Source: Somniosus microcephalus
Taxonomy: Eukaryota
Direction: 5' to 3'
Assembly: GCA_052327205.1 (NCBI GenBank)
Contig: CM126202.1
Coordinates: 171,554,001 to 171,618,000, forward strand
Length of the DNA stretch: 64,000 nt
Shown here: positions 4,213 to 56,982 of the stretch, in pieces
Numbering within the stretch: the first letter of the stretch is position 1
Layout: the number at the start of each line of letters is the position of its first letter
The notes under the pieces: model-generated
What the model saw: the letters and a program-made list of their open reading frames with translations, nothing else
Told to the model about the DNA's origin: nothing
Database searches by the model: none
Made by a program: the position numbers and the translations under genes

Positions 4213-5013
4213 GGGGGTGATTTTCACTCAGAAGTCAGGAAGGAGGCGGGACTACAACTTTCGGGGTTGTAGTCCCGCCTCCATCGAGATGCAGCCAATC
4301 CACGTGATTTTAATGATTCACCTTGTTGAGCCCACCCAGGCCAATTAAGGGCCACCCAGCAACAGGTGACGTCACAGACTGAAATTTCATCTGTCAAGAC
4401 GTTTTGACAGATGAAATATCAGTGTTTCACAGCTGTTTGAAGCTGTCAAACACTGACAGTCTTACTTCTAACCTGAGTCCTTCTACACAGACTCAGTTAG
4501 AAATCTCTCCGGCACAGAAAGCTGCAGGCTGTCACTTTTGACAGTTCGCAGCCGCTCTGCTTTCTGTGCCGGTTAGATGATGGACTCCCGAAACCTAGAG
4601 GAAGGAAGGCTAAAAAGGTAAGTACAGGTAATTTAAACTTCTTTACACACTTTAGACACACCAAACCCACTTACCTTTGCACTCATGCACCCATCACTCA
4701 CCTGAACACCGACATCTCGACCCCTCCAAGTCCTTCAACCCGACAGCCCGACTCCTCTAACTTGGCGTGGTTTGGAGCCGTCGGGAATCCCACAGTTCAA
4801 GCTTTAAAATAGGGATTGGGCTAAAAACTGCCTGTTAACTAATCCCTTCCTGCCTTGGGTAGGCGGGTCCCAGTGCGGGGCGGGTACCCGCCTCCTTTGA
4901 AACTTACATGGAGGCGGGCTGGGGGCGGGATGGTGTCGGGACCCCCGAATTCGGGACTTTAACCCCCCGCACGCCTCCAATCCCGACTCCATGGGTCAGT
5001 TAAAATCGAGGCC
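4213..5013 (+). mobile_element. Non-autonomous Harbinger-ended hairpin-array element, copy A
   Basis: TIRs GGGGGTGATTTT / AAAATCGAGGCC, 3-bp flanks AAT/AGT; homologous to 33280-34085, 37148-37951 and 54374-55204. Confidence 0.8.
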
Positions 5014-5837: not shown

Positions 5838-6091
5838 TGTAGTGTATGTACCCGTCTACCTTTAAGAGAACTATTGTATGTAGCCGTCCACCTTTAAGAG
5901 AACTACTTTAGGTGTTGCAGCACTTTGTTGGCTTCTGTATACTGTAATACCGACGGTGACCACACCGGTATATAAGTGCTGTGTCAGGATTTACTGGGCA
6001 GATTCGCCCTGACCTTCGAATAGTAAAGTCCTGTTTTAAGTTACTCTGGTAGTCTGTGTATTAATTAACTAAACAACCCACAGACTTTACA
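5838..6091 (+). repeat. 5' LTR of the Gypsy element
   Basis: TGTAGTG...TTTACA, TATA-like TATATAAG, AGTAAA polyA-like signal. Confidence 0.95.
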
Positions 6092-6647
6092 GTGGCGACG
6101 AGTCCGATCGTACCCTGCGGCAACAATACTTCCGAAGCAGTTAACGAGCGTCGAGAAGAGGCAACCGCCCTCGTCATTCTGCTGGGAGAAAACTCGAGTC
6201 TGCAGAGCTGGAAAGGAGGAAGAATTCAGAGACAAAGACTTCCATCAGCAACAGGCACTGACTGTCCCTTCTGCCACGGTGAGGAGTGAGCCGATCAGCA
6301 CGAGAAGCAAGCCGGCCACGGTGACTGTGAGTAAGGGAAAAGTAAAAAGAATAACCGGAGGATAAGGGCGGTGCACTCGACCACGGTCGAGGGGGAAAGG
6401 AGCCGGACAGAAGTCGGGCCCAGAGGCGGAGACTGGGGCAGCGTGGAGCAAGGAAGCCGCGGTACAGACAGGCTGGGGACGCAACGGCGTCGTGAGACAG
6501 CTAGACCGCGACCGGCGAAAAAGGCCGGGCAGCGACCGAAGCCACGAAGCACTGCGACCGGGAGCGTAGGCGCGGGAAGATATAAAAACTCAGCCGCAGC
6601 CGGGGAGGGAAGCTCCGGACTGCGAGAGGGCTGGGAGGCGCGATTGG

Positions 6648-11306: not shown

Positions 11307-11560
11307 TGTAGTGCATGTACCCGTCTACCTTTAAGAGAACTATTGTATGTAACCGTCCACCTTTAAGAGAACTACTTTAGGTGTTGCACTACTTTGTTGG
11401 CTTCTGTATACTGTAATACCGACGGTGACCACACCGGTATATAAGTGCTGTGTCAGGATTTATTGGGCAGATTCGCCCTGACCTTCGAATAGTAAAGTCC
11501 TGTTTTAAGTTACTCTGGTAGTCTGTGTATAATTTAACTAAACAACCCACAGACTTTACA
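11307..11560 (+). repeat. 3' LTR of the Gypsy element
   Basis: Direct repeat of 5838-6091. Confidence 0.95.
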
Positions 11561-12287
11561 GTGGCAGTTTGGAGAACTACCCCCACTGACTAACTTGGCC
11601 ACCGCGGGAGACTCGGACTCGGCAACATTGCCGGTTATTGAGGTGTTGTTTTCGGAGTGAGAATTTTGCCGGTTAATAGAGAATTCCGGATATTTAGGTG
11701 CCATTTAAATGAGAGTTTCCTGTATACTAATTGTGTAGAAACTTCAAACAGTATGCTTGATGAACACCTATGCACATTTGCAGCATTTTCTGTGAATAAA
11801 ATATCTTTCCCCATGCGCCGTCTGCTTTGACTTTGATGAAAGGTTCTACCTAAATCATTAACTTATCTTTTCACTTTCAGATGCTGACATACAATGATTT
11901 CCCAGCAATTTCTGTTTTGACATTTTTTTTCCCTGGAGGAGCTGGAGCTGTCCCTCAGTGGACTTGACATATCCCACTTGTACTAAAAAGATGATCATCT
12001 GTCCTTTAGAAGCCAGGGGAACATTATAGAACTCATTAGGCCTGGAGCAAATTTTATAAATTAATTTTGTCATTATCCACATAGCAGTCAGAGCATCACA
12101 CAATAACAGTGACTGCACTTTGGGATGTCCTGAGGATGTGGTAAAGTTTTATATAAATTAAAATTCTTCATTTTCATTATGAAAGTATGACCAGCAGAAA
12201 TATCTTCCAGGTCAATTACAGCATCCTTGCTCATCTTATGACTTGCCTGTGATTAAATAAATAATTCTCGCATTATATGCATCAAAT

Positions 12288-13930: not shown

Positions 13931-14118
13931 GGGCTGGATTTTACCAGCCCTGAGGAGGCGGGTTTGGAGGCAGGACTGATGGGAAAATCAAAAAGAATGG
14001 GAGCGGGTCCTGAACCCGCCTCCAGCCAATTTTCCCGGGAGTCGGGTCCCCGATTTGCGCAGGGACCCGACTCCTCGCGGCGGGAAGAGGATGATAACGA
14101 CTTAACTGCCTGTTAACA
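13931..14118 (-). mobile_element. Partial (right end only) copy of the hairpin-array Harbinger family, copy E
   Basis: TAA|GGGCTGGATTTT TIR, GGAGGCGGG motifs, ends at ttaactgcctgttaaca as in the full copies. Confidence 0.65.
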
Positions 14119-29873: not shown

Positions 29874-30042
29874 GGCCTAGAAATTCGTCTCGGGCGGTGG
29901 CGCAAAACAGGCGGTATCGGATCGGCTGCCCATTATCCGCAGCACCTGACTGCAAATAACTGAATATTAGGCACTGCGTATAACAGACTGACGATCCAAT
30001 ACTGCCTGTTTTGCGTCACCGCCCAAGATGAATTTCTAGCCC
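29874..30042. mobile_element. 169-bp fold-back Harbinger-type MITE
   Basis: About 50-bp TIRs GGCCTAGAAATTCGTCTCGGGCGGTGGCGCAAAACAGGC... / ...GCCTGTTTTGCGTCACCGCCCAAGATGAATTTCTAGCCC; flanks TAG/GAG; inserted in a CR1 remnant. Confidence 0.8.
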
Positions 30043-33279: not shown

Positions 33280-34085
33280 GGGGTCGATTTTCATTGACCC
33301 GTGGAGTCGGGATTGGAGGCGTGCGGGGGGTTAAAGTCCCGAATTCAGGGGTCCCGACACCATCCCGTCCCCAACCCGCCTCCATGTAAATTTCAAAGGA
33401 GGCGGGTACCCGCCCCGCACTGGGACCCGCCTACCCGAGGCGGGAAGGGATTAGTGCCAATTAACTGCCTGTTAACAGGTAGTTAACAGGCAGTTTTTAG
33501 CCTAATCCCTATTTTAAAGCTTGAAGTGTGGGATTCCCGATGGCTCCAAACCACGCCAAGTTAGAGGAGTCGGGCCGTCGGGTTGAAGGACTTGGAGGGG
33601 TCGAGATGTCAGTGTTCAGGTGAGTGATGGGTGCATGAGTGCAAAGGTAAGTGTGTTTGGTGTGTCTAAAGTGTGTAAAGAAGTTTAAATTACCTGTACT
33701 TACCTTTTAAACCTTCCTTCCTCTAGGTTTCGGGAGTCTATTATCTAACCGGCACAGAAAGCAGAATGGCTGCGATCTGTCAAAAGTGACAGCCTGCAGC
33801 TTTCTGTGCCGGTGAGGTTTCTAACTGAGTCTGTGTAGAAAGACTCAGGTTAGAAGCAAGACTGTCAGTGTTTGACAGCTGCAAACAGCTGTGAAACACT
33901 GATATTTCATCTGTCAAAACGTCTTGACAGATGAAATTTCAGTCTGTGACATCACCTGTTGCCGGGTGGCCCTTAATTGGCCTGTTGAGCCCGCTGGGGC
34001 AATCAAGTTAAAATCGCGTGGATTGGCCGCACCCCGAAAGTTGTAGTCCCACCTCCTTCCTGGCTTCTGAATGAAAATCACCCCC
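33280..34085 (-). mobile_element. Hairpin-array Harbinger-ended element, copy B (inverted)
   Basis: TIRs GGGGTCGATTTT / AAAATCACCCCC, TSD ATG; very similar to copy A but lacks about 23 bp of the right arm of hairpin 1. Confidence 0.88.
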
Positions 34086-35410: not shown

Positions 35411-36999
35411 GGGGGAGAAATTCGGTTGTTAGCGCCACCGATTAACGCCTAAAGAGGCCGAGAAGTGGGGCGCTAGCCAATTTCCAGGTGGGCGCAGGGC
35501 GCCTAGCGCCTCGCCCCATATTGAGCATGCATTTAGCGCCAGCGCTAAATCTTAGCGCCCGCTCATGGGCGCAGGCTGATTATGACGTCATTTGAGTGTG
35601 CAATGCCTTTTGGGCGCCCCAGACCAGAAATTCAGTGGCGCCCCCCTCCGTAGCGCCTGGCGCTAATAGTGACAGCTTACCTGGAACCTTACCAAGTCGC
35701 TCTCGGGCTGGAGGAGCATTATTTAAAGGGGACTGGTGTGGTTTAAAAGCGGCAGCCATTTTTGGATCACAACTTCCTCGAGAGCTACAAAGAGTTGCTG
35801 AGCTGCAAACTGAGAGCCATTTGACCACTGAGCCAGCGCAGGCAGATGATCTTCAGCCTTCTGACCATCACCTTGCTGTTGGTGAGCCTTGACAACGGGG
35901 AACCTTCCTGTGGGCACTTATTATGGGGGCTGCATTGGAGGGGAACGTCCTGCTGCTGAATCATCTGGAAAGGGCACTGAGACGCTGGGAGAGGGGGGCG
36001 GGCATGGCCAGACGGAGGAGGGCCAACAGACATCACCACAGCAGTCCTTACGCTGGCAGGGTTTTCCGACAGCAGTTTTCCTACATGAACATGCCGGAGG
36101 AGCAGTGTGTCAGAAGGCTGCGATTTAGAAAGGAGGTGGTGACTGAGCTGTGCCAGCTGCTTCAGCCAGATCTGCAGCCTCAGATAAGGTGCAGGACATC
36201 TCTGTCGGTGGCTGAGAAGATGCCTGCTGGCCTGAACTTCTACGCGAGCGGCTCTTCTCAGGCTGCGTGTCAGAGGCTGATCAGAAGTAGCTTCTAGGCC
36301 CCTCTCACGGAATGCTTGCTGCCATTCCAAGAACAGGAATGGAACCGGTCTGATACCCCCAAGCCTGTCAAGGGCAAGATGCATGTAAATAGCAGGCATG
36401 GCCATTGTAAATGAAGAAAGTGCTTCATTACACAAAATGTGGTTCCTTCAAACATGAGAAAGCTATGGCAACAGAAAGCAAAACTAATACACTGACACAT
36501 AACTGCCTCTCACACCCGGGAGACTGTCCAAAACATAAATCACATTCCGACCATCTTCCTTGGCCTTGATTCCACTGCGCCAACCAAAGCATCCAATGCC
36601 CCATCAGTGAGGCCTTCCGTCCTCTGCCTCACCCTTTCCATGTCTTGCTAGGCTGGTGCGCCACAGGTAGGCTCCCACCGCTTTGTAGGCCTACAAGGCA
36701 GTGAGTGTGTCTGGTGATGCCAATTGATCTGCCCCTTTAAGAGCTGGCCGGCGCCAGTGTCTCTTAGGGATAGTGACTATTGACAGCACCTTCGCTGCGC
36801 CCCGCTGCCGCGAAATTGGGTTGCGCCGCCGGGTTAGCACCTTAAGAGTAGCGTTCAGCGCCTGATTTAGCGTCGCAATCACCTTTAGGGGCGATGCAAC
36901 TCAATATCACGCTAGGTGGTGCTAAATTGCGCCCGGCGCTAAACTTTGCGCATCGCCAGGACTAGCGCCCCAAACGCGGCTATACCGAATTTCTAGGCC
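35411..36999. mobile_element. Internally deleted PIF/Harbinger transposon
   Basis: TIRs GGGGGAGAAATTCGG / CCGAATTTCTAGGCC; transposase N-terminus on + (RVFRQQFSYMNMPEEQCVRRLRF); start of the Myb/SANT gene on - near 36640; TSD not recognisable. Confidence 0.8.
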
Positions 37000-37147
37000 T
37001 TCGGATAGGATTCCTGTACAAAACTTTAATAATTAAGCCCACATACTTATTTATACAGCAGTTACAGCAGAAGTAGCAATTTATATTTACAACATTTTCA
37101 CCAGTCTGTTGGATCACCTATACAAATTGAGAGATTGAGGAGACCTG

Positions 37148-37951
37148 GGGCTGGATTTTCATTGAGGAGGCGGGTAGGAGGCAGGACTACAACTTTCGGG
37201 GTTGTAGTCCCGCCTCCATCGAGTTCTAGCCAACCCACGCGATTTTGATTTGATTGACCTTGTTGAGCCCGCCAATTAAGGGCCACCTGGCAACAGGTGA
37301 CGTCACAGATTGATATTTCATCTGTCAAGACCTTTTGACAGATGAAATATCAGCGATTGACAGCTGTTTGAAGCTGTCAAACACTGAAAATCTGTACTCC
37401 AAGTTAATTCCTTCCTCTCAGGATGATTTAGAGATCTCTCCGGAACAGAAAGCTGAATGCTGCAATTTTTGACAGATCGCGGGCCATTCTGCTTTCTGTG
37501 CCGGTGAGATGAGGGACTCCCGAGACCTGAAGGAAGGAAGGCGTAAAGGTAAGTAAAACTCCTTTAAACACTTTAAACACACCAAACACACTTACCTCTG
37601 CACTCATGCACCCATCACTCACCTGAACACTGGACATCTCAACCCCTCCAAGCCCTTCATCCCAACAGCCTGCCTCGCTAACTTGGCGTGGTTTGGAGCC
37701 GTCGGGAATCCCACATTTCACCAATGAAAATAGGGATTAGGCTAAAAACTGCCTGTTAACTACCTGTTAACAGGCAGTTAATTGGCACTAATCCCCTTCC
37801 CGCCTCGGGGAGGCGGGTCGGGTACCCATCTCCTTTGAAACTGGCATGGAGGTGGGTTGGGGGCGGGATGGGTTCGTGCCCCCTGATTTCAGGATTTTAA
37901 CCCCCCACACGCCTCCAATCCTGCCTCCACGGCCCAATGAAAATCCTGCCC
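37148..37951 (+). mobile_element. Hairpin-array Harbinger-ended element, copy C, inserted in a CR1 3' fragment (about 37105-38366)
   Basis: TIRs GGGCTGGATTTT / AAAATCCTGCCC, flanks CTG/CAG. Confidence 0.85.
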
Positions 37952-39264
37952 CAGGTCTTTTTTCCCTAGAATTTAGAAGAATGAGAGGTAATCTAATTGA
38001 AACATTTAAAATTCTTACAGTGCTTGACAGGGTAGATGCTGGGAGGATGTTTCCCCTGGCTGGGGTGTCTAGAGCTAGGCGTCAAAGTCTCAGAATAAGG
38101 GGTCGGTCATTTAGGACTGAGATGAGGAAAAGTTTCTTCACTCAGAGGGTGGTGAATCTTTGGAATTCTCTACCCCAGAGGGCTGTGGATGCTCAGTCAC
38201 TGATTATATTCAAGACTGAGATTGATATATTTTTGGTTATGAAGGGAATCAAGTGATGTGGGGATAGTGCGGGAAGGTGGAGTTGAGGTAGAAAATCAGC
38301 CATGATCTTATGGTGGAGCAGGCTCGAGGGGCTGAATAGCCTACTCCTACTCCTATTTCTTATGTTCTTGAATTCAACCAGGCCAGGCCAAAAAAAACCA
38401 TAAAATGGTAAGTTGCACTGACACTTGCATCACAGAAGATAGTTTCCCTGTTGTGTAAAATTGCAGTCAACAGGCTTGGGCAGGAGGCCAGCGGGTAAGT
38501 CTCCATTCTAACTGCTCCCGCCTGGTTTCTGCCGATCAGGGAGGGGGTTAAACTCCCCCCACCCCAGGAATCCACCAGTGAACCAAACTTCACATTCCAT
38601 CACCCAGTTCTGCTGTACGTCAGGTTCATTCTCCACAGTTCTGCCAAATCGTTGGCTCCCCCTCCACAGCAATGTCACACTAAAGAATTCCCCCCATGCT
38701 GTCAAAGCCCAACAGCCCTGCCATTTTGTTATAAAACAGCATACTGTCTGACTCACTTTGAGCATTGCCATGGAAGATGTGCCAGAACCTTAAATAAATT
38801 ATTTCAATGTTCCTGTGGTCAAGCCCATTGAGGTAAACTGCACACACCCATATGTGGGTGGACTTATGGTAACTACATTTAAATGAGAGAAATATGTTCG
38901 CCACCATGTTTCCTGCCATTTGCACTTTTGAAATGCTGGATCCTGGAATCAGTTAGGTTCCAGTGTCCTGAAGTTAGTAGAGGGGCTCTCAGGGCATGAG
39001 AAGATAAGGTATTTGTGCAAAAGCTTACAGAGATCAGGTCTGCATAGGCCCTATTCAATTAAAAAAAAATAAACAGCTGCCTCTTCCTCCCACTGTGGTG
39101 GGCCACCTAAGACCTGCTACAGCAAGTCTCCAGCCCAGGCTGCAGCAAATCCCTGGCGGAAGTGGTTGACTCCAGAGCCAGGAGTCACCGCAAGGATGGA
39201 AAAAAGTCCAGCGTTGCCAGAAGTGTAATCCAATCAACAGGGGCAGGGAAAGCCTAGGCTATAT

Positions 39265-39515
39265 GTCACTGAGGGAGTACTGCATTGTCACAGGGGCTGT
39301 TCTTTGGATTAGCTGATAAACTGAGGCCCTGTCGACCTGTTTCTGTGATTCAAATAGACATTAAAGATCCCATGGTGGCACCATGGAGTTTTCGTGGGTA
39401 CTTGCCCAATAGGTCTGCACTAAAAACCATCACGACCACCAAAAACAGATTATCTCATGACTGTTCGTGGGATGTTGCTGTTTTTGAAATGCTTGCAACA
39501 TTGACCTACATAACA
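39265..39515 (+). mobile_element. Degraded Deu-SINE fragment
   Basis: cactgagggagtactgcattgtc...aaactgaggccc...taaagatcccatgg...aacagattatctc. Confidence 0.55.
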
Positions 39516-39699
39516 CACACATGTACACCTCCCCCCCCCCCCCCCCCCCAGTAGAGGGTGCTGTGCTGGAAAAGACAACGGATTAGAGGAAATCTCAGAT
39601 GACAAGCCTGCAAAAAGTCTGTGGGCAGCTGTCAGTGAGGTGAACAGCAAGCGCCATTCCTTTGCCGCTGAGAGCAAAATCTGGACCATTATATATTCT

Positions 39700-42600
39700 T
39701 GCACATAAAACTCCTGTTGCCAGACCTGCAGCCTCAGAGCAGGGTGAAGACTGCACTGCCAGTGGCCCTCAAGGTCACCGTGGCCCTCAATTTTTTCGCC
39801 ACCAGATCCTTCCAGTCTGGAGCAGGAGACAAAGCTAATATTTCCCAGTTTGCCGTCCATCACTGCATCTGGGAGGTCACAGAGGCTCTATACTCCAGGA
39901 GAAGGGACTTCATTGTCTTCTCTCTGAAGAGAAAGAGGCAGGAGGAGCGTGCATGTGGTTTGCCAGGATATCAGGCTTCCCCATGATACAGGCGCCATCG
40001 ATTGCACACATGTGGCTTTGCGGGCACCGCATATCAATCCCGAGATGTACCGCAACCACAAAGGCTACCACTCACTTATTGTGCAGTTGGCATGCGACCA
40101 TGCCCAGCACATCACGATGGCGAATACCCAGTATCCTGGCAGCAGTCATGATGCCTTCATCCTGCGCCAGTCCGGTGTGCCAGCAATCTTCCAGCCACCA
40201 CGTCAAACCAGAGGGTGGCTGCTCGGAGACAAGGTCTGTCTGCTCTATACCTGGCTGATGACTCCCCTCCGCAACCCCACTACTTGTGCTCAGCGCTCAT
40301 GAAATGAGAGCCATCAGGGTTCTGAAGGAACAGTTCTGCTGCCTTGTCCGCTCGGGAAGAGCCCTCCAGTACACGCCACAGCGGGTGCCCCATTTTGTGG
40401 TGGTCTGCTGCCACAACTTGGCCATCATGAGGGCACAGCCCTTGGCAGCACGGGTTCTGCGATCACTTCAGGAGGAAGAGGAGGAAGGGGGGAGGCCGGC
40501 TGCAGATTCCCTTTCCGGATGGGCTGTCCGTAAGTGCCTCATCGGAATCTGGTTCCCCTGAATGAAACCCCCTGATCCCCATTGCTCTCGACTTCCCCAC
40601 TTTACCATTCCTCTGCTATGGAACATCACAGCGTCCTCTTGGGCACAAAGCTGAAATGAGAGCTACCACAAAACAAACATTCCAAACATAATTTATAAAT
40701 TAATCAATGCAAAACTACACAACAAAGTCTATCTTTCGTATTCTTTTGCCTACTCTAGTGCTCCTACACAGTGCTACCCCAGTCGCTGCAGCATGGCTGG
40801 TGGAAGGCTGCTGACTTCCTGTGGGGGAAACTACAGATGGTCTTGCAGGACGACCCCGAGCAGCTCTGGGCCAAGAAGGCCCAGCTGTAGACTGCACCAC
40901 CTCGGCATGAGCGGCAACAGTCTGGGCTGGCTTGCTGGCAGGCAGCAGCAAGGGTACTGACGGAATGGCAGTGGCGCCTCAACATTCCTAGCTGTCTGTG
41001 GACTGCTGTGCGACCCTGCAAGCCCCTTTCCACACTCGTAAACCCAGCCTCGATGGTATCAATCTGAGCTTGCGTGGCAGTAAACTGAGCCTGCATGAGA
41101 GCAGTCTGAGCTTGCATGGCAGCAAGCTGAGACTGCTTGGGAGCAGTCTGAGCTTGCACTGCAGCATTCAAATGTTGGGTCGCTTCCGCTTCTGCTGCAA
41201 TGGAAACTGCAACATTGCTCATCACACCCAGCATCATGGTTGGGTTAACAAATGCGCTAATGCAGTTGCCCATCATTTCCATCCTGGAAACCATGGGCTC
41301 CAAGCTCCGCACAAAGCCCTGTGCAATGTTGGAGTCAGACTCCTCCATGCTCCTCGACACTGACAAGAGGCTCTCTGGCAGGTTTGCCATTGCACCAAGC
41401 ATTTGTGTGTGCATGCCCATCACCCTTCTTCTGAAGGCCGTCCCATCAAAGTCATCATCTGAGTCCTGTGAAGAACTCGTGCCCGGTGATTCACCACGTG
41501 CAGATCCCGCCTCTATACTACCCTCTAAAGTACGTGCAATGCCATTTTCTGAGCTGGTGCCTGGGAGTGTCAGATCGAGTGACGGTGCCGCTTCGTCTCC
41601 TTCACTCTTCCTCCACAACGTCGGAGACAGGCTGGGCTGGTGGCAGTTCTTGGGTATCTGAAAGGAGAAAGGCACAAGGGTCAGGTTTTGGTGAGGGGTG
41701 AGGGGGAAGCAAGATGTGCATGGTTACACCATCAGCAACTTGTAAGCAAGAAGAGATTGTGGGATGAAGCGGAACTGGGATGTGAGAAGGTGATATGAGC
41801 ATAACATCATCACAAATATTTTCAACCTCGCCGCTTGACACGGCCTCAGTGACGGTCCCTTCAATGATCTCCAGCACAGTCTCCTCCAGCTCAGTCAGGT
41901 TCTGAAGTCGGGTTGCCCCTCTGCTATTGCTCACATCTATTGGGTGCCACCTTTGCCTGCAAGAGAAAGGGAAATGTCTCAGTGAGTGTGGTGCAATGTG
42001 TTTGGGTGATATGCCTGCCGTGGTAGAATAGCTAGCAGTGTGTGCAAGGTGTGAGTCTTGCAGCAGTGGTAAGTATGTGCAGGTAAAGCTATGATTGTAA
42101 AGTACGAGTCTTGATTGCTGGTAAGTGAGTGATGGATGGTCTGGTGCATTGAGCAGTGCGTGAGGCTAATGGTGCAGTTGGTGAGATATGGCATTTGAAG
42201 GTGCATTCGCTCACCTTAACCATTCGTGTGACATCATTAAACTTCCTGTGGCACTGGATCCAGGTCCTGGGGACGACACAGGTGGCATTCATGGCTTGTG
42301 CTATCTTCTCCCACTGTCTTCTTGCGTGTTACTTGGAAGGCCTCCTGCCCCCCTGCAGGTAGAGGACTTGACGACTTCTGTGCACCCCCAGGACCAAGGC
42401 TTCCAGTGCTGCATCTAAGAACCTCCTTTCCCTCTCTCTTCTCTGTTAAGCCATAGCTTCAGACTGACAATGAGGCGCTTCTGTAATAAAGCACCTCCCC
42501 TTTAAGTGGTGCAGAGAGCCTAGGCAAAATTTTATTGGCCAGTAGACTGCACCAGATATTGGCTCTCCTGCTGCGCGCTAAGCCAACCAGCAGTGCGTTT

Positions 42601-42704: not shown

Positions 42705-43847
42705 AAAGACATTTAAGCTAGATGGGGGGAAGACAATTGATAAACTAATCAAACTTAGAGAGAATAAAACCCTTGGGTTGCATTCGCACATATTAAAAGT
42801 AGTTAGTGAAGAGGTATCAGAGGCACTATTAGATATATATAAAAATTGATTAGAAAAGGAAATAGTGCCAGAGGCTGGCGGATAGCTAATGTGCTTCCTA
42901 TATTTAAAAAGGGAGCTAGAACAAGTTCAGGGAACTATAGACCAATTAGCTTAATGTTGGATGTAAGAAAGATAATGGAATCCTTACTCAAAGATGTAAA
43001 AGAAAAACTTCTAGAAACTGAAAACATAATAAAAAGTAGTCAGCAGGGATTTCAAAAGGAAAGATCATGCTTGACTAACCTTATTGAAATCGTTAAAGAA
43101 GTAATGGAAAGGGTAGACGGGGTGATGAAGTAGACGTAATATATTTGGATTTTCAAAAGTCGTTTCATAAGGTACCACATAGTAGACTCATGACTAAGGT
43201 CAGAACATATGGAGTCAGGGACAAGTAACAGAATGGATAGCAAACTGGCGGCCAGAGAGTAGGGGATTAAAGATAGTTACACAGACTGGCAAAAGGTGGG
43301 AAGTGGTGTTCTAAAAGTATCGATGCTGGGACCATTTACATAAACAATTTGGACTCAAGAATCGGACGTACAATTTCAAAGTTTGCAGACGACACTAAAT
43401 TGGGGATTGTAGTTAATGCAAAGGAAGAATGTGACAAAATACAGGAAGACATTAATAAACTTGCAGAATGGGTGTGTAATTGGCAAATGACCTTCAATAT
43501 AGGTAAGTATGAGGTGGTACATTTTGGTAGGAAGAATAAGGAGGCCACATACTCCTTGGAAAATAAGGCCGTGATTTCGCCAGCCAAGGCGGGTTCAGGG
43601 TGGGAGAGGTTGTTGTCGGGATATGGTCCCACTGCCTACTGAAGCCCGCCGAAAAAAAGGATTTTACGTTAATGGGCCTAGTTAAGCCCGCCCGTCGCAT
43701 TCCCCGATCCTATTAGAAAATGCAGGTCAGGTGACGTCAGCGCTGACGCTTCTCTTGCCGGATTATTTAAAGGGCCCATGGCCCCACTTCATTCCACTTC
43801 CTGAATTTGAAATGACCATTGCTGAGATAGCTTGTTCAACTCCAAAA

Positions 43848-45730
43848 ATGAGCTCACAAAGGCAGAGGGCTGCACCTCGATTCAGTGATGACTCCCTCCA
43901 TGTTCTTGTAGAGGGAGCAAGAGCATGCAGGAAGGTTCTCTTCCCTGCCAGTGGTTGGAAGAGACCACCTCAGGAGACCAAGGCAGCCTGGCTGCATTTA
44001 GCTGAGGAGGTAACGGGCAGCTGTGTGGTGATGAAGACCTGGTTTCAGTGCCGCAAGCGTTTTCATGGTCTTTTACGATCTGGAAAAGTGAGTATAAAGC
44101 CACACTTACCTTCATGTTGCTGTGTCTGTTATCACTTCCCCATCACTCAGCATTCCCAACCCTACTCCTGCACAGCGCAACTCAATGCAACATCCCATAC
44201 ACCTTCAGCCATCCCTCTCTATCCAGCTACATTATTGCATCCCCATCTAACTATGCACCCCGAACACTCACCCTCATCCTAATGTAATGACACCAACTAG
44301 CAACACTAAAGGAGGCTACTTGTTACAGCCACCCCACTCCATTATAGTCTCCCTATAAAGATCTAACACATCCATTCGTTACACTCATTTCATCACTCTC
44401 ACTCAACCTTCTCTTCTTTCCCTCCTTGCAGGAGAAGAGAACGCACAACAAGAGGGAGAGGGGGAGAACAAGAGGTGGCCCTCAATCACTCGTCATTCTG
44501 ACTCTTGCAGAGGAGGCAGTCCTGGAGATCACTGGAGTGGTGGATCAGTTGGAAGTGGGAGACAGAGAGAGGGGCTCATCAGAACAACGTGGTTACAGAA
44601 TCATTTCCCATTAACCTACATGTCATTCATCGGTCACTCATATTGGGGCTGATGTCAACAGGAATTGATTGCTCATAATGTACTTATTGGTATCTGTATG
44701 CAATGGACATATCATTTATCTAACTGATGTCTTTACTCTGCCACAAGTCCACCAAGAGCACCCCCTAATGTCCATGAGGACCATCAAGAGGACTCCTCAG
44801 AGGAGGCTCCAGCCTCTGAGGGCGCAGATCTCTGACAAGGCAAGCCAGCACCAGCGCAGATACGCACACCTTAGTGGGCTGTATGCGAGATAGAGTAGTG
44901 TTGTCACCTGGTGTCTCAAGTCACAAGTAAGCAAGAGGAGATGGTGGAGACAGGGACAGACTCTGGAGGGCGCAGGAGTCACCTAGCTCTGCTCAGCTGC
45001 ATGCAGACGGTGAACCTCGGGGACCATCAAGGAAGAGGGCGGTCCTGGAGCTGGAGCAACAAGTGCAGGAGGCTCCAACAGGTTTTGCAACCGCGGTGAC
45101 TGCAAGTGTGCAGAGAATGGAGGAGTCCATCTCAAGCATGACTAACACCATGGCGCACACACTTGCAACTGTTGTTTCCTCCATGGATAGGATGGCCACC
45201 TGCATGGAGGATGTAATGCGCCAGTCGCTTGAGCACATGATCTCAATTTAAAATAGATGGGCATCTATGGAGGATAGATGGGCATCTATTGAGGAGAGAA
45301 ACCAGAGGCGCATAGATGTCCTTGCTAGGAGGAATGTTAACGTAGACATGGGTCCTCATGGCCCCACTGATGTGCAGCAAGGTGCTCTCCAGCTACTTGC
45401 TAGCAAAGAAGTGCGGGTGACCCATGAGAGGGATGATGGTGGGAGGGCACATGCAAGTGGGGGCATCTCTCCAAGCACTCACACTTCAAGCCCCTTGCCT
45501 ACCCCTCAGTCAGATCCCCAGATGCCCCCACGGACAGCGATGGCCGACTCTGCCACTGCTTAAGTCACAGGAGGAGCACAGTTTGGCAGTGCCCACACAG
45601 GCTCCAAAACCCAGAGGACGACCGCCAAAGGTGTCTAAGCAGATGCAGTAGGGAAGTGAGCAGGATGCCTCTAACAGGGGTTGCACCACGTAGAAACACT
45701 CGGAAAAGAAAGATGCCACACAAATAGAGT
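43848..45730 (+). pseudogene. Harbinger Myb/SANT-like DNA-binding protein gene (exons 43848-44087, 44432 to about 44590, about 44748-45730)
   Basis: MSSQRQRAAPRFSDDSL...AW...KTWFQCRKRF..K|gtgagt; pyrimidine tract and cag|EKRTHNKRER..TRGGP; last exon frameshifted. Confidence 0.8.
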
Positions 45731-46013
45731 CACAAGGGTAGTCACTTGGGTGTTTCTTTCAATGTTATTGACAAGTTTCTGTTAATGTGATTTTGTCCAT
45801 TAAATCTTTTCATGCGTGAACTTTGTGGTTCTTGGCAAATGTGTTGATACTTGGAAGTGGCAGAGTGGATAGTCAGGGCTATTTTAATCTTCATCAATGG
45901 TGGTAACATTGAAAAGATAGGACTGGTCATTGTAGGGATGGTTGATGGCGTAGATGTGGGCTGATGCCAATGTGGCAATGCATGTGGCAGCCACATGTCG
46001 GTTTTGCGTGAAC

Positions 46014-48150
46014 TTAACTAAATCTGGCCATGATGAGGTGATTCCTGGCCTCACGGGCAGCAATATGGTCGTGTACTGGTGGCATTGGTACCGGCAGCTG
46101 CTCAAGGTCTTCATCATCCTCATTCTCAAACTTATGCTCCTCCTCCTCGTCCTCCGAAGTGGCTGTGCGCTCTGTGCCTTCTTCCACCTGCAGCACTAAT
46201 CCTCGTTGCTGTGCTATGTTGTGCAGGGCGCAGCAGACCACAACGATTCTGGAGACCCTGGCTGGTGCGTACTGCAGGGCTCCTCCCGATCTGTCCAGGC
46301 ATCTGAAGCGTGTTTTCAGTATGCCTATTGTTTGCTCTATGACACGTCTGGTGGAGATGAGGCTTTGATTGTAATGTTCCTCAGCCTCGTTTGTTCTCCT
46401 CCTCAAAGGTATCATCAGCCACGTCTTTAGTGGATAGCCCTTGTCACCAAGCAGCCGGGGGAAAGACTGTTTGGAGGTGTGAACAGCTGAGGAACGGTGG
46501 ATTAGCGCAGGCTGTAGGAGTCATTGCAGGGAACTTGGCGCACACATGGACAATGATCTTCCTTTGGTTGCAGGCCAGCTGCACATTGAGGGAGTGGAAG
46601 CCCTTGTGGTTGATAAACACTGCTGGGTTATGATGGGGTGCCCTGATGGCCACATGTGTGCAGTCGATTATGCCCTGCACCCGTGGAAATCCAGCCAGAG
46701 CCTCAAAGCCAATAAACGGGTCGTTTTCCGAGTGGCAGGCAGTGACTAGTGGGGTACCGCAAGGATCGGTCCTAGGAGCCCAGCTGTTCACAATATATAT
46801 TAATGATCTGGACGAGGGAACTGGATGTAATATCTCCAAATTTGCAGACGACACAAAGCTGGGTGGGAGGGTAAGCTGTGAGGAGGATGTCGTGAAACTC
46901 CAGTACGATTTGGACAGGTTGGGTGATTGGGCAGAAACATGGCAAATGCACTATAATGTGGATAAATGTGAGGTTATCCACTTTGGTGGCAAAAACATGA
47001 AGGCAGATTATTATTTGAATGGCAATAGATTGGGAGAAGGGGAAGTGCAAAGAGACCTGGGTGTTCTTGTGCACCAGTCGCTGAAGGTAAGCATGCAGGT
47101 GCAGCAGGCGGTTAAGAAGGCAAATGGTATGTTGGCCTTCATAGCAAGAGGATTCGGGTACAGGAACAAGGATGTCTTGCCACAGTTGTACAGGGCCTTG
47201 GTGAGACCGCACCTTGAGTATTGTGTGCAGTTTTGGTCATCTTACCTGAGGAAGGACGTTCTTGCCATGGAGGGAGTGCAGCGAAGGTTCACCAGGCTGA
47301 TACCTGGGATGGCAGGAATGACGTATGAGGAGAGATTGTGTCGATTGGGCTTATACTCACTGGAGTTTAGAAGATTGAGAGGGGATCTCATCGAAACCTA
47401 TAAAATTCTGTCAGGTCTGGACAGACTAGATGCAGGAAGGATGTTTCTGATGGCTGGGGAGTCCAGAACCAGGGGTCATAGTCTAAGGATAAAGGGTAAG
47501 CCATTTAGGACTGAAATGAGGAGGAATTTCTTCACCCAGAGAGTGGTGAACCTGTGGAATTCTCTGCCACAGAGGGCAGTGGAGGCTAGTTCATTAAATA
47601 TATTCAAGAAAGAGTTGGATATATTTCTTGAGGCTAAAGGGATCAAGGGATATGGGGAGAAGGCAGGGACAGGGTACTGAATTGAATGATCAGCCATGAT
47701 CTCATTGAATGGCGGAGCAGGCTCGAAGGGCCGAATGGCCTACTCCTGCTCCTATCTTCTATGTTTCTACGCACGCTCAGCAGCACTGGCTTCATCAGTG
47801 GCAAAGTTGATATAATTTGATGACTTGTCAAAGAGGGCAAGTGTAATGCATCTGTGTGCAGCCGACTGAGAGATGCCGCAAATGTCTGCTGCAGATGCCT
47901 AGAGGGAGCCTGAGGCGAAGAAGTTGAGGGCAAGGGTGACTTTAACAGCTACTGATAAGGGGTGTCCACCCATTCCTCTGGGCTGCACCTCTTGCTCCAG
48001 CAATCTGCAAATGTCCGCCATAACCTAAGCCTCCGTTGGCACTGCTGCTCAATCATGTTGAGGAAGCTGATCCTCTGCCTGTAAACCCTGTGTTGGGGGC
48101 AGCGCCTCTGGCGAAGTCCAGCCATGCGCTGATGACCTCTGCAGCATCAG
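46014..48150 (-). pseudogene. Harbinger DDE transposase (HARBI1-like), disrupted by CR1
   Basis: [54 protein letters not shown]. Confidence 0.87.
46711..47769 (+). mobile_element. CR1 LINE 3' fragment inserted in the transposase
   Basis: ORF 46646..47680 RT C-terminus; same subfamily as 20221 and 31332. Confidence 0.93.
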
Positions 48151-48398
48151 GTGGTTGAGGAGAAGGTTGTTGCTGTTGCTGCTGGGGTGCCTAGTTCTGC
48201 TGGTGTTGGGGTTCATCGTGGTCAGATTCTGAGGACCAAGGTGAGAGAGTGTAAACCGTACCCATTCTGATGTAATAGATGGTAGGTGACGGAGAGATGA
48301 CAGAAGCAAATCCGTCAATGATGAGAGAGGTTGTTCCAATGAGGTGCCACTGGATAGAGAATTGGCTCTAAACACTTGCAAGCTACAGAAAGCTCTAT

Positions 48399-48954
48399 GG
48401 GGGAAAAATTCGGTTGCTTTGTGCCTCCCGTTAGCGCGAAATTCAGCGGGAGGTTAGCGCCCCATGACGCTATGTCCAACGGGGTCAGGGGGCCCTACCT
48501 GTGGTAGGGGCGGTGCTATTTAAAGGCGAGGTGTCAGGTGGCCATTTTGTTGCTGGTCGCCTGCCAGCACCCGCCTCCGCTGCCGTCCCTGGCCTCCTGA
48601 GCACCCCCCCCAGCGGAGTGCTGGCTGTACTCCATGAGCTCGGCACTTCTCGAGTGCCGGGCTCTTTTGCAGGCACTCCGTTCCCGGTGGCCCAGCTGAG
48701 CATTAGGTCACGCTGCGCAAGGCCCCTCCCCTTTAAGAAGGGGAGGAAGGCCTGCAATACCGCAGCACCTAGCACCGCGATATTCCCTTGCAGCGCCCCA
48801 AGAGGGACGCGGGGCGCTTCCAGTAGCACCCCGCTTCCCTCTTGGGGCGCTACCACTCTATTTCGGCAGCGGGGGTGCTCATTTTTTCAGGGCGCTAAAA
48901 TAGTGCCCTAGCGAAGTTAGCGCCTCAAAGGGGGCGCAACTCAATTTTTCCCCC
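48399..48954. mobile_element. 556-bp non-autonomous Harbinger nested in a Harbinger
   Basis: TIRs GGGGGAAAAATT / AATTTTTCCCCC, TSD TAT, TAGCGC/GCGCTA subterminal motifs. Confidence 0.85.
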
Positions 48955-51900
48955 TATATGTCTTACAAATGCAGTAACCAACAGTTTCTGAGCTCTGAAA
49001 CTGAAATGCTGCAACGTGGTATCCTTTATACCACTTCTGCAGCTGTCAGTTAATCAGATAAATCAAAGCAGACTCAACTGACAACAAGGTAAGCTGTCGT
49101 GTTCCCCGAGCAGCAGGTAACCTGTGGGGGAGCACGTAAAATTAGAAGGTAAGCTCAAAATGTAATTATCTAAATTGTCTCCCTCGCCGCTTGGTGTCGG
49201 GTCTGTTCTGCGCAGACAGACCCGACACCTGGGAGACTCATGTGGAGGCGGGTTGACAGTGGGTTTCCTACCTGGTCAATCTTTGCTATTTTGACAGCTG
49301 ACCCACCTCAGATCCCGCCCTCTGAGTGCCAGCAAAATCCAGCCCCAAGTGTCTAAATGGGGCAAAGGAGCAGAGGGATCTGGGGGTACAGTACACAGAT
49401 CAATAAAAGTAGTGAAAGGTTAATAAGGTTATAAAAAAAAAGATAAAGCACTGGGGTTCATTTCTAGAGGGATAAAACTGAAAAGCAGAGAAGTTATGTT
49501 AAACATGTACAGAACCTTGGTTACACCACACTTGGAGTACTGAGAACAATTCTGGTCTCCATATAATAAAAAGGATATAGAGGCACTAGAGAAGGTACAA
49601 AATATATTTACTAGAATTATACCAGAACTGAGAGGTTGTACCCATCAGGAAAGATTGAACAGGCTGGAACATGAACATATGAACATACAAACAATGGCGG
49701 ACACATAACGACCCTCTGGTCCATCGAGCCTGTCCCACACAACTGCGGTAACTTGTGTATCAAAATATATACACTCCACCTCACCCAAAACCATGTGATC
49801 TCCTGGGAGAGGTGAAAAACCAGGTAAAAAATCCCGGCCAATTTGGTGGAAAAAAATCTGGGAAATTTCTCTTCGACCCATCTAGGTGATCGAAATTAGT
49901 CCAGGATTTCAGTCTGGCCCTGAATTTCCTGCAGTACCTACCTTCTGTAAGAGGTGATCTCTGCCCCAGCCAGAAACAGGTCCAGCTCTCGCTTGAAGGA
50001 ATTCAGCGAATTAACATCCACTGCACAAGGCGGCAGCCTGCTCCAGAGGTCCACTATTCTCTGGGAAAAGAACCACCTCCTGACATCTAACCTAGATCTG
50101 GCCTTATACAACTTTAATTTTTGACCCTTGGTCCTCCCTAACCTATTTAATTGGAACAAACTGTCAACTGGAACACAATCTATTCCCTTCATTATATCTT
50201 TTAAACCTCAATCAGATTACCTGTAAGTCTACACTTTTCTAAAGTGTAGAGTCCCAAATCTTTTAGCTTATCTTGATAACTAAGAAGCTTTAAACTGGGA
50301 ATTAGTCTAGTGGCCCTCCTCCGCACCATTTCCAAAGCCTCAATATCACCCACCATGTGAGATGACCAAAACTGGACATAGTATTCCAAGTGAGACCTGA
50401 CCAAGGTATTGTACAGGGATAAAATAGTATGCCTCGTTTTGTACTCAATTGTCCTAAGGATACACCCCAACACCCTATTTGCTCTAGCTATCGCTTCACG
50501 GCATTGCTCATGTACCTTTAGAGATGTATGCACTAGAATGCCCAAATCTCTTTCTATTTCCGCCTTCTTTAATGCTTTTCCCAGAAAGGTGTATGAATGT
50601 TGAGCATTTGCCTTGCCCACGTGCATAACACTGCACTTCCAAGTTATGAGCCCAATCTCCCAACACATTAAGATCCATCTGAAGCAGACGAGCATCGTCT
50701 ACAGTCCTAACTCTCACACAGATCTTAGTATCATCTGGAAATTTGCAGATCGTACCCCCAACACCTACATCCAGATTATTAATAAAAATAATAAAAAGCA
50801 ACGTTCCAACACCGATCCCTGCAGGACACCACTGGTGACTAGTCTCCAAACAGATCCAAATCCATCTATAACTACTGTTTGCCTATGTCCTGCCAGCCAG
50901 TTCTCAACCAGCTCAATACATTACCACTAATACCACCAGGGGTGTCAATCTTATATAGAGTCTCTTGTGTGGTACCTTATTAAAAGCTTTTTGGAACTCT
51001 AAGTAGACACTGTCTACTGGGCTTCCCTCATCCACCATCTTTGTAACTTCTTCCAAAAATAGAATTAGATTTATAAGATATGACCTCCTTTTTATGAAGC
51101 CATGTTGGGTGTCCCTAATATGTCCCTCTCTATCCAAACATTCATATATTGCATCCCTAATGATTCCGTCAAGTATCTTACCTATTACTAATGTCAAACT
51201 AATGGGCCTATAGTTAACCGGGTCCGTCTTGTCACCTTTTTTAAAGATGGGGACTACATTAGATCCTTCCAGTCTATGGGAATCATTCCAGAGTGCAGTG
51301 AGCTATTAAAGATACAGGCTGGGGGTTGGAACAGCACATATTCGATCTCCCTGAGGACCCTCGGGTGGCTATCACCTGGCCCAGCTGCTCTATCTATTTT
51401 CAAGTTCTTAATTCTTTCTAAAACAATATATTCATCTATGTTAATATTACTAGTTTTGTTAGTAACATTATTAAATTCTAATAGTCGAGCATCATCTTCA
51501 AGAGTGAAGTCCAATGCAAAGTCTCGTTTAATACTTCTGCCATACCCAGTGAATCCTTTGTAACCTGTCCTTGAACATCCTTAAATGGTCCAGTACAGTC
51601 TGTGACAGTTCTCTGACTCTTCACATAACTGAAAAAGCTTTTCCCATTACTTCCACAAATGTCTATGATCCTCTTTTCCATTAGCCTTTTTGCTGATCTA
51701 ATAGCAGCCTTCGTTTTGTTTAGTTGTTCCTTGTACTCAACTCTGTTTAGTTGAGTCTTAAATACCTTTAATTTATAGAAACATTTCTGTTTACATCTTA
51801 TTTGTCTTTGTACAAAGCCACCTTGGCTTTTTCTTACCACACTCCCTTCTTTTGACTTTGGGTACATATTTGTTTTCCACATTTTTTATCTTGTTCTTAA

Positions 51901-54373: not shown

Positions 54374-55204
54374 GGGCTCGAATTTATCAATGGGGATGTG
54401 ATGGAGGCGGGACTCCCACTTTTTGGGTTGTAGTCCCGCCTCCATCGACTTGTGGCCAACCCACGCTATTTTCCCTTGATTGACCTTGTTAAGCCCGCCC
54501 AGCGGGCTCAGCAGGCCAATTAAGGGACACCTGGTTACGTCAGTGATTGACATTTCATCTGTCAAGAGCTTTTGACAGATGAAAAATCAGCGTTTGACTG
54601 CTCTGTGAAGCTGTCAAACACTGACACAATCTGTCTTCTAACTTGAGTCCTTCGACTCAGACTCAGTTAGAGATCTCTCCAGACCAGAAAGCAGAGGCTG
54701 CAGCTTTTGACAGTTCAGCGGCCATTCTGCTTTCTGTGCCGGTGAACTGAGGGACTCCCGAGAACTGAAGGAAGGAAGCCTGCAGGAGAAAGTAAAGGTA
54801 AGTAAAACTTAATAAAACACTTTACACTTACCTCACACACTTACCTCTGCACACATGCACCCATCACTCACCTGCACAATGGACATCTCGACCCCTCCAA
54901 CCCCTTCAGACCGACGGTCTGCCTCGCTAACTTGGTTCCGTGGTTCAGAGCCGTCGGGAAGCCCACACTTCAGGGCTAAAAATAGGGATTAGGCAAAAAA
55001 CTGCCTGTTAACAGGCAGTTAATTGGCACTAATCCCCTTCCCGCCTCGGGGAGGCGGTTCCCAGCACAGGTCGGATACCCGCCTCCTGGGACATTGGCAC
55101 GGAGGCGGGTTGGGGGCGGGATGGGTTCCTGCCCCCCGATTCTGCAATTTTCCCACCACTCCCGCCTCCAAACCCGCCTCCATGTGGCTTGGAAATTCGA
55201 GCCC
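54374..55204 (+). mobile_element. Hairpin-array Harbinger-ended element, copy D (divergent subfamily)
   Basis: Perfect TIR GGGCTCGAATTT / AAATTCGAGCCC, TSD TTG. Confidence 0.88.
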
Positions 55205-56225: not shown

Positions 56226-56982
56226 GGGGGAGAAATTCGGTATCGCCCCATTTGGGGCGCAATTGTCAGCCGGGCGCAAAGATTAGCGCCTGGCGCTAAT
56301 TATCGCCTCTGACAGCAAACTTGGCTTTTATTGCCCCTGGAGGTGATTGGAGCGCTAAATCAGGTGCTACACAACTCTCTTAAGGCGCTAAGGCCGAGGA
56401 GCGAGGCGCTACCTCAGAGGGTGGGCGCAGCGCAGGTGCTGTCAGTTAGCAATTGAACACAGACACACTGGCGGTCAGTTCTTAAAGGGGAGAGTCGATC
56501 TTGCTCTGCAGCCACACCCTGCTCAGTGGAGCCTTGAATCTCGGCCTGGGCAGACCTGTGGCTAAATCTAGCAGCCAGACACTATGGAAAGGGCCAGGGA
56601 ATGAGCGCAGCACTTCTGCGAGCGGGCCTTGGAGGCTCTGGTATGCGGGGTGGAGCGCAGAAGATCCATTCTGTACCCAGAGAGTGGCAGGAGGCCTTTG
56701 CCAAGCGAGTACAGGAAAGTGTGGAGGGAGGTGGCTCAGAGAGTGTCCTCAAGCAGCATGGTGCCTAGGACCCCTGTGCAATGTAGGAAAAAGTTCAATG
56801 ACCTCACTTGGGTCGTCAGGGTGAGTGCCTTTTTTTCAAAACCTTTTCATCCCTCCATCTCCACCTCACTTTATGGCCAGAGGGTCTTGAAAGCCCCAAT
56901 GTCCAACACTCATCCAATACCTATGGCCCTTTCATGAAACACACATGCACATTCCACACTCTGCATACAGTAAGGGCTATTC
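56226..56982 (+). mobile_element. PIF/Harbinger end with Myb/SANT exon 1 (about 56584-56820), cut by the assembly gap
   Basis: TIR GGGGGAGAAATTCGG; VWREVAQRV...RTPVQCRKKFNDL..R|gtgagt. Confidence 0.82.

Follow-up and report, generated by a model that had tools for sequence, protein, structure and literature searches.

The A-D family of repeats in the window, the whole stretch of 64,000 nucleotides of Somniosus microcephalus that was analysed (CM126202.1, positions 171,554,001 to 171,618,000), is a non-autonomous PIF/Harbinger MITE, ordinary by every testable feature; its unusual point is a traceable, stepwise palindromisation. We observed the structure of its hairpin array, a series of deletion families, a rise in folding, concerted change of stem arms between subfamilies and neutral decay of the inserted copies. 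Between a two-gene Harbinger element and a hairpin-tiled MITE, a graded series of forms survives in the genome. A preliminary description of this DNA had taken the array for retained cargo; it consists instead of the promoter, leader and first codons that belonged to the parent element and were turned into palindromes, and nothing in it calls for a foreign source.

Copies in the window and size of the family

Four full copies had been proposed, and their coordinates and strands were confirmed. They align end to end, and B, C and D are 88, 80 and 77 % identical to copy A.

4213-5013, + strand: copy A of the non-autonomous Harbinger MITE (subfamily A)
4213-4224, + strand: left TIR of copy A, flanks AAT/AGT
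5002-5013: right TIR of copy A
33280-34085, - strand: copy B, TSD ATG/ATG, 23-nt deletion in H1
37148-37951, + strand: copy C (subfamily C), flanks CTG/CAG
54374-55204, + strand: copy D (subfamily D), TSD TTG/TTG
13931-14118, - strand: right end of the sister MITE family E, separate from the A-D type

The last segment had been read as a partial copy; it matches family E at 90 % versus 71-77 % for the six A-D subfamilies. The ends, described as 12-bp TIRs with 3-bp flanks, hold in part: the TIRs of A pair at 8 of 12 bases only, and the flanks, identical in B and D, show a single-base difference in each of A and C. Copy B indeed lacks the right arm of H1, and the non-coding status was supported by tblastn, which found no Myb or transposase match inside the window copies. 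The assignment to Harbinger agrees with the 3-bp TSD, the short TIRs, the palindromic target and the ends shared with an element carrying Myb and transposase.

A 21-mer outside H1-H5 had 19,869 exact matches in the genome of 6.45 Gb (control, 0). As it is present in 69 of 94 copies found independently of it, the A-D family comprises about 27,000 copies, likely an underestimate. Ninety consecutive 21-mer matches on one contig served as the subfamily sample. Full length was reached by 68 of them, which fell into six subfamilies (C 28, D 11, A 9, G 9, H 7 and I 4 copies) with consensuses of 831-844 bp; the consensus of I rests on these 4 copies. Individual copies diverge from their own consensus by 3.1-4.5 %. 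Subfamily I looks like a mosaic of C and D. The TIRs measure about 12-17 bp and start with GG; in some subfamilies they are imperfect. Identical 3-bp flanks were present in 56 of 90 close copies selected by search and in 34 of 68 full-length copies selected by the motif. The 56 sites with intact TSD revealed a preference for A at -5 (0.96), C at -2 (0.73), G at +2 (0.75) and T at +5 (0.93) around a mainly A/T-rich central triplet (TAT, TTT, AAT, ATA). Exact motif matches were 1,184 for family E and 8,156 for F/E2 versus the 19,869 of A-D, but the motifs differ in length and these figures are not comparable copy numbers. Three further organisms contained 63-81 % of the sampled words, and in two of them contigs cover the whole element.

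The hairpin array

The hairpins H1-H5 are real: copy A has four stems of at least 12 bp, compared to a mean of 0.007 (maximum 1) in 150 dinucleotide shuffles. The window holds 23 such stems, 14 of them inside the four copies.

4239-4285 (perfect core 4242-4282): H1, inverted pair of the subterminal GGCGGG motif
4375-4381 with 4457-4463: outer stem P1, closes H2 and H3 into a three-way junction
4378-4423: H2, one mismatch, loop at about 4398-4403
4419-4456: H3, one mismatch, collinear with the Myb 5' leader
4466-4502: H4, collinear with the first Myb codons
4509-4572: H5, extends over the 5' leader of the transposase and, at about 4513, the Myb/transposase deletion junction
4614-4678: further 10-bp inverted pair, its arms splice-donor-like motifs on opposite strands
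4861-4992: right subterminal inverted pairs around GGCGGG/CCCGCC, already co-varying in the two-gene parent type

Persistence of the stems across copies was borne out. Their description as a discrete module of five separate units has to be given up: the consensuses of D, I, A and G hold 10-12 stems of at least 10 bp over the whole element, and H2 and H3 are enclosed by P1. H4, reported as decayed in C, is partly re-paired in the C subfamily instead of simply lost. The H3 mismatch, C-C, is carried by 42 of 44 subfamily A copies. H1 is weak in subfamily G (11 of 18 pairs), and its counterparts in the families E, E2, F and W are shorter and imperfect. In subfamilies A, C and H the H1 arms contain the motif ACTACA (window 4250-4274), which we take to be a ZNF143/THAP11 site; it is missing from the left arms of E, D and I and is thus derived. 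A splice-donor reading of the + strand motif at 4614-4678 was dropped: the motif forms a 10-bp inverted repeat together with its - strand counterpart, and E lacks it at that place. Breaks near hairpin centres (model positions 194-199, 239-246 and 652) occurred in 8 of 22 partial copies and hint that hairpins may be hot spots of deletion or insertion.

Collinearity with a two-gene relative

Family W, about 4.3 kb long, has two genes, Myb/SANT on the + strand reading in from the left end and a DDE transposase reading in on the - strand from the right end; both ends were found in 8 of 16 fetched loci. A decayed copy lies in the window.

43567-49345, + strand: two-gene Harbinger family W, a decayed copy holding nested insertions
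43818-44093, + strand: Myb/SANT exon of the W copy (PF13873, 23 bits, cut-off 21.7)
46179-48116, - strand: interrupted transposase of the W copy (46179-46508: PF13359, 71 bits)
4341-4345, + strand: CCAAT of the promoter on the parent's Myb side, shared by F, E2 and E and absent from W
4367-4374, + strand: TGACGTCA of the parent's Myb-side promoter, in all families

The two promoter motifs, CCAAT and TGACGTCA, are presumably NF-Y and CRE sites. Family F (about 1.8 kb) kept Myb exon 1 and little transposase. In E2 and E (about 870-890 bp) about Myb codon 20 is joined to the transposase start region, and this deletion junction is common to E2, E and A-D. A 24-26-nt segment holding the TATA-like TTAAAGG, still present in W, F, E2 and E, is missing from A-D alone. 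Aligned in the order W-F-E2-E-D-A, the left ends need almost no gaps, and the start codon of W falls at about 4459-4461 of the window; by this alignment promoter and leader correspond to H2 and H3, the first codons of Myb to H4, and the junction together with the transposase leader to H5. Identities (left/rest) were 0.65/0.82 for W-F, 0.78/0.68 for F-E2, 0.83/0.79 for E2-E and 0.73/0.67 for E-D, and about 0.5 for W-A. The consensuses behind these values derive from 9 of 30 loci (E), 7 copies (E2) and 14 copies (F), and the link from W to A-D came via diverged profile hits. W is the nearest two-gene family found, a cousin rather than a proven ancestor, and the direction of the series therefore rests on deletion polarity and parsimony.

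A parent search led by Pfam profiles (PF13359, PF13873) yielded other Harbinger families with unrelated ends. Among 30 loci with a PF13359 transposase no match to the MITE ends was nearby, and among 30 Myb (PF13873) loci there was one chance neighbouring MITE only. Inspection of 30 E-motif and 30 F-motif loci with 1.5-kb flanks (from 1,184 and 8,156 matches) revealed no element combining intact ORFs with H2-H5 or H3. Elements combining a W-type promoter with an F-type second half of Myb exon 1 are recombinants between families. In the F consensus the W start codon is lost, and an open frame from an upstream ATG runs through H3, adding about 20 mainly hydrophobic residues ahead of the Myb domain; this ATG sits just past the TATA-like box and may not be transcribed.

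Build-up of folding along the series

Folding of the first 320 nt strengthened along the series, with z values of -1.1/-1.3 for W, -2.3 for another Myb family, -3.3 for F, -5.5 for E2, -11.8 for E and -9.3 to -17 for the six A-D subfamilies; single copies gave the same family order. Stems of at least 10 bp, the right half included, numbered 3 in W, 5 in F, 4 in E2, 9 in E and 10-12 in the A-D type. Counting the pairs defined on A-D in W, F and E was rejected as circular, hence the gradient rests on the folding z values and the de novo stem counts. H3 is absent in W, bulged in F and E2 and near-perfect in E, there after a one-base insertion, and in A-D. At H2 the deletion of 24-26 nt and three adjacent changes jointly give the reverse complement of the other arm. 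Inverted pairs exist already at the right end of W, and between W and A-D their arms change in concert while the core stays fixed; the interior array thus extends a subterminal habit. In similarity to E, stem columns barely exceed non-stem columns (0.70 vs 0.61, p 0.08), which indicates that the arms were rewritten rather than conserved.

Covariation between subfamilies and decay within them

Outside the stems the subfamily consensuses are 8-25 % apart, yet 82-91 of 97 pairs are kept in each. Variation on both sides affected 13 of the 97 geometric pairs between subfamilies, against 4.5 expected (p 0.0008). Six pairs are compensated Watson-Crick pairs, a number reached in none of 5000 shuffles (mean 0.63); partners slid along the alignment gave 0-3. 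The stems were defined on the same sequences as tested; the best slid control reached 3. The compensations were confirmed in single copies. Examples are C-G/T-A at 4379/4459 in P1, A-T/T-A at 4516/4565 in H5 and the series G-C, C-C and C-G at 4428/4447 in H3; three compensations pass via abundant mismatched intermediates. Geometric stems were used instead of RNAalifold pairs (127 pairs, 18.5 % variable, 12 G-T vs 5 A-C), which were rejected because they overstate conservation and + strand wobble. The preliminary description had suggested examining covariation, and had stated that its lack, with stems no better conserved than loops or spacers, would speak against a retained array. The covariation exists, in the 6 of 97 pairs; the stems are not significantly better conserved, with 21.6 % variable columns versus 32.4 % in loops (p 0.10) and 22.9 % in the mid region.

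The inserted copies decay neutrally. Pooled over 163 copies, with columns dropped where a variant exceeded 10 %, the transition rate was 0.0110 in stems and 0.0110 in unpaired sites, a comparison in which a handful of exapted copies would escape notice. Relative to their own consensus, copies have lost on average 4-17 of 97 pairs. Among the same 163 copies no excess was observed of novel perfecting changes (5 vs 13.6 expected) or novel compensatory doubles (12 vs 13.9 expected), counts that leave aside variants common to other subfamilies. Such shared variants, which are not independent events, lean to perfecting (6.7 % vs 4.3 % non-stem and 2.7 % breaking). There was no G-T bias on either strand (6 G-T vs 5 A-C in the consensuses, 156 vs 177 in copies), and none of the five hairpins had an inverted loop. 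Neutral decay in resting copies together with covariation between subfamilies implies that symmetry was kept in source lineages only.

Origin of the hairpins

With moderate confidence we regard the hairpins as quasi-palindromes, most likely perfected by template switching in a lineage that kept transposing. After the loss of the genes and the TATA-like box the perfection of palindromes would have been unopposed, and one arm of an imperfect inverted repeat could have been copied onto the other by switching during DNA synthesis tied to transposition, e.g., the repair of the excision gap. Myb and transposase acting in trans via the TIRs and the GGCGGG subterminal repeats presumably mobilised the element, and the interior array would then have no host function. 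Template switching is described as making perfect inverted repeats and compensatory changes without selection (PMC5453318), and perfect stems and compensatory pairs have been attributed to it (bioRxiv 2021.04.15.439925). Against it, no event was caught in the 163 inserted copies, which also lack loop inversion in the five hairpins, and clustered divergence occurs outside the stems also. The mismatched intermediates of the three compensations fit two-step selection equally well. In resting copies the switching rate is too low to offset decay, so some filter or a transposition-coupled step is needed. A selection among source elements that favours symmetric DNA inside the MITE is a serious rival, though we consider it less likely. 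Benefits might be, for example, the formation of hairpins or cruciforms, inverted protein sites aiding the transpososome, or a promoter shutdown that lowers transcription-dependent silencing. The co-varying arms and the neutrally decaying resting copies are as expected if only the founders of bursts were filtered; the pairs kept despite the divergence outside the stems and the many A-D motif matches, with the reservation on motif length made above, point the same way, and internal sequence is reported to alter the mobility of mPing (PMC9921582). On the other side stand the stem columns, not significantly less variable than loops, spacers and mid region, the persistent C-C mismatch of H3 in subfamily A and the weak H1 of subfamily G. 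Slightly less likely again is that source elements were selected for DNA symmetry rather than sequence, the parent's promoter, leader and first codons having become a co-varying hairpin scaffold that enhanced its own mobility and let the lineage out-transpose its relatives.

Two functional readings fit the data less well than template switching. The motif TGACA(G) is associated with TGIF/MEIS, and the array had been proposed to be a cassette of palindromic TGACAG sites for host TALE homeodomain proteins (MEIS, TGIF, PKNOX) or the element's own Myb, which we judge improbable. Each A-D subfamily holds 4-6 sites, where 1.8 are expected from the genomic background, and both H2 sites are invariant across the six subfamilies. 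All families, however, hold 4-8 (expected 1.8-2.2), the parent ends being equally rich (W 6, F 8); there the sites lie mainly in the right end, where A-D have lost all of them, so that they shifted to the left interior. Moreover, subfamily G changed three sites to TCACAG/CTGTGA with the pairing of H3 kept. GGCGGG, which in each of the ten consensuses ranks with the most enriched 6-mers (7-11 copies, at both ends), appears to be the better candidate for a Myb site, by analogy to the binding of ORF1/Myb to element ends (PMC2836001; PMC9179366). Very improbable is a functional RNA: either a structured RNA, the other half of the earlier proposal, here with a three-way junction and hairpins, or a small-RNA precursor. 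Compensation in P1, H3, H4 and H5, the three-way junction of H2 and H3 and the G-U pairs used on the + strand in H4 of C and I would suit it. Yet Rfam returned no match at the gathering score and six weak ones far below the cut-off (E 0.075-0.65), both strands fold about equally, G-T does not exceed A-C, and purifying selection on stems was not seen in the copies. In addition, A-D have lost the TATA-like box, upstream of which H1 lies, and cut-and-paste transposition passes through no RNA stage at which selection on the element could take hold. Two runs presumed to be RNA gave many fragmentary contigs of relatives; among the matches listed, none spans the element and no consistent break falls at the donor-like motifs, which weighs neither for nor against a transcript. 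For RNA discovery this is a caution, as significant covariation and a three-way junction occur here in an element with neutral decay and no strand bias.

Relation to known elements

Like mPing, which derives from Ping, and zebrafish Harbinger3N_DR, the A-D family is a two-ended deletion derivative of an element with Myb/ORF1 and transposase, and it shares with them the short TIRs, the 3-bp TSD, an extended target preference and a high copy number (PMC2836001). According to the same source mPing is a perfect deletion derivative, whereas the interior of A-D differs from that of the two-gene relative by about 50 % and was rewritten into 10-12 hairpins via at least three intermediate families. The target of Harbinger3_DR, AAACACCWGGTCTTT, has the same bases at -5, -2, +2 and +5, but a central CWG in place of the mainly A/T-rich triplet of A-D (PMC3016246). 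Quasi-palindrome correction, as described in PMC5453318 and bioRxiv 2021.04.15.439925, yields the same perfected repeats, clustered changes with an indel and compensation without RNA function. These sources treat single genomic events and rRNA histories; here the events would have accumulated over one transposon lineage. Spacer inversion, the hallmark of inter-strand switches, was not seen.

Eulor and UCON repeats are hairpin-rich, non-coding and of likely DNA-transposon origin; they are ancient, low-copy and under purifying selection. From this general description A-D is set apart by its youth (3-4.5 % from consensus), tens of thousands of copies and neutral decay. A search of the openly accessible literature listed no description of the A-D family or of a hairpin build-up in Harbinger MITEs. 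The natural intermediates make it testable whether the success of a MITE depends on its interior, a question posed in PMC2836001. If the hairpins raise mobility, they offer a design lead for transposon vectors; if not, A-D is an ordinary MITE whose mutational history is documented unusually well.

Other repeats in the window and genome

The Harbinger load of the genome is very large, with 96,620 (transposase) and 93,085 (Myb profile) first-look candidates, and the top matches of each profile are dominated by one family with long open frames. The decamer TGATTGACAG, which we take to be a PBX-PREP site, occurs in an unrelated young Harbinger family, in the promoter of its Myb gene. According to PMC9179366, Harbingers were undetected in elephant shark. 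At least 17 left-type and at least 14 right-type Harbinger-like end motifs were counted in the window. A different Harbinger-like MITE (48399-48955) is nested in the W copy; it has a TAT duplication and contains a 22-bp hairpin of its own (48792-48851). Further Harbinger transposase and Myb remnants and a 170-bp palindromic mini-element lie at 36058-42361, 56572-56826 and 29874-30042. Two 259-bp direct repeats (5838-6096 and 11307-11565), 97 % identical, about 5.5 kb apart and with TG...CA ends, are probably retrotransposon LTRs.
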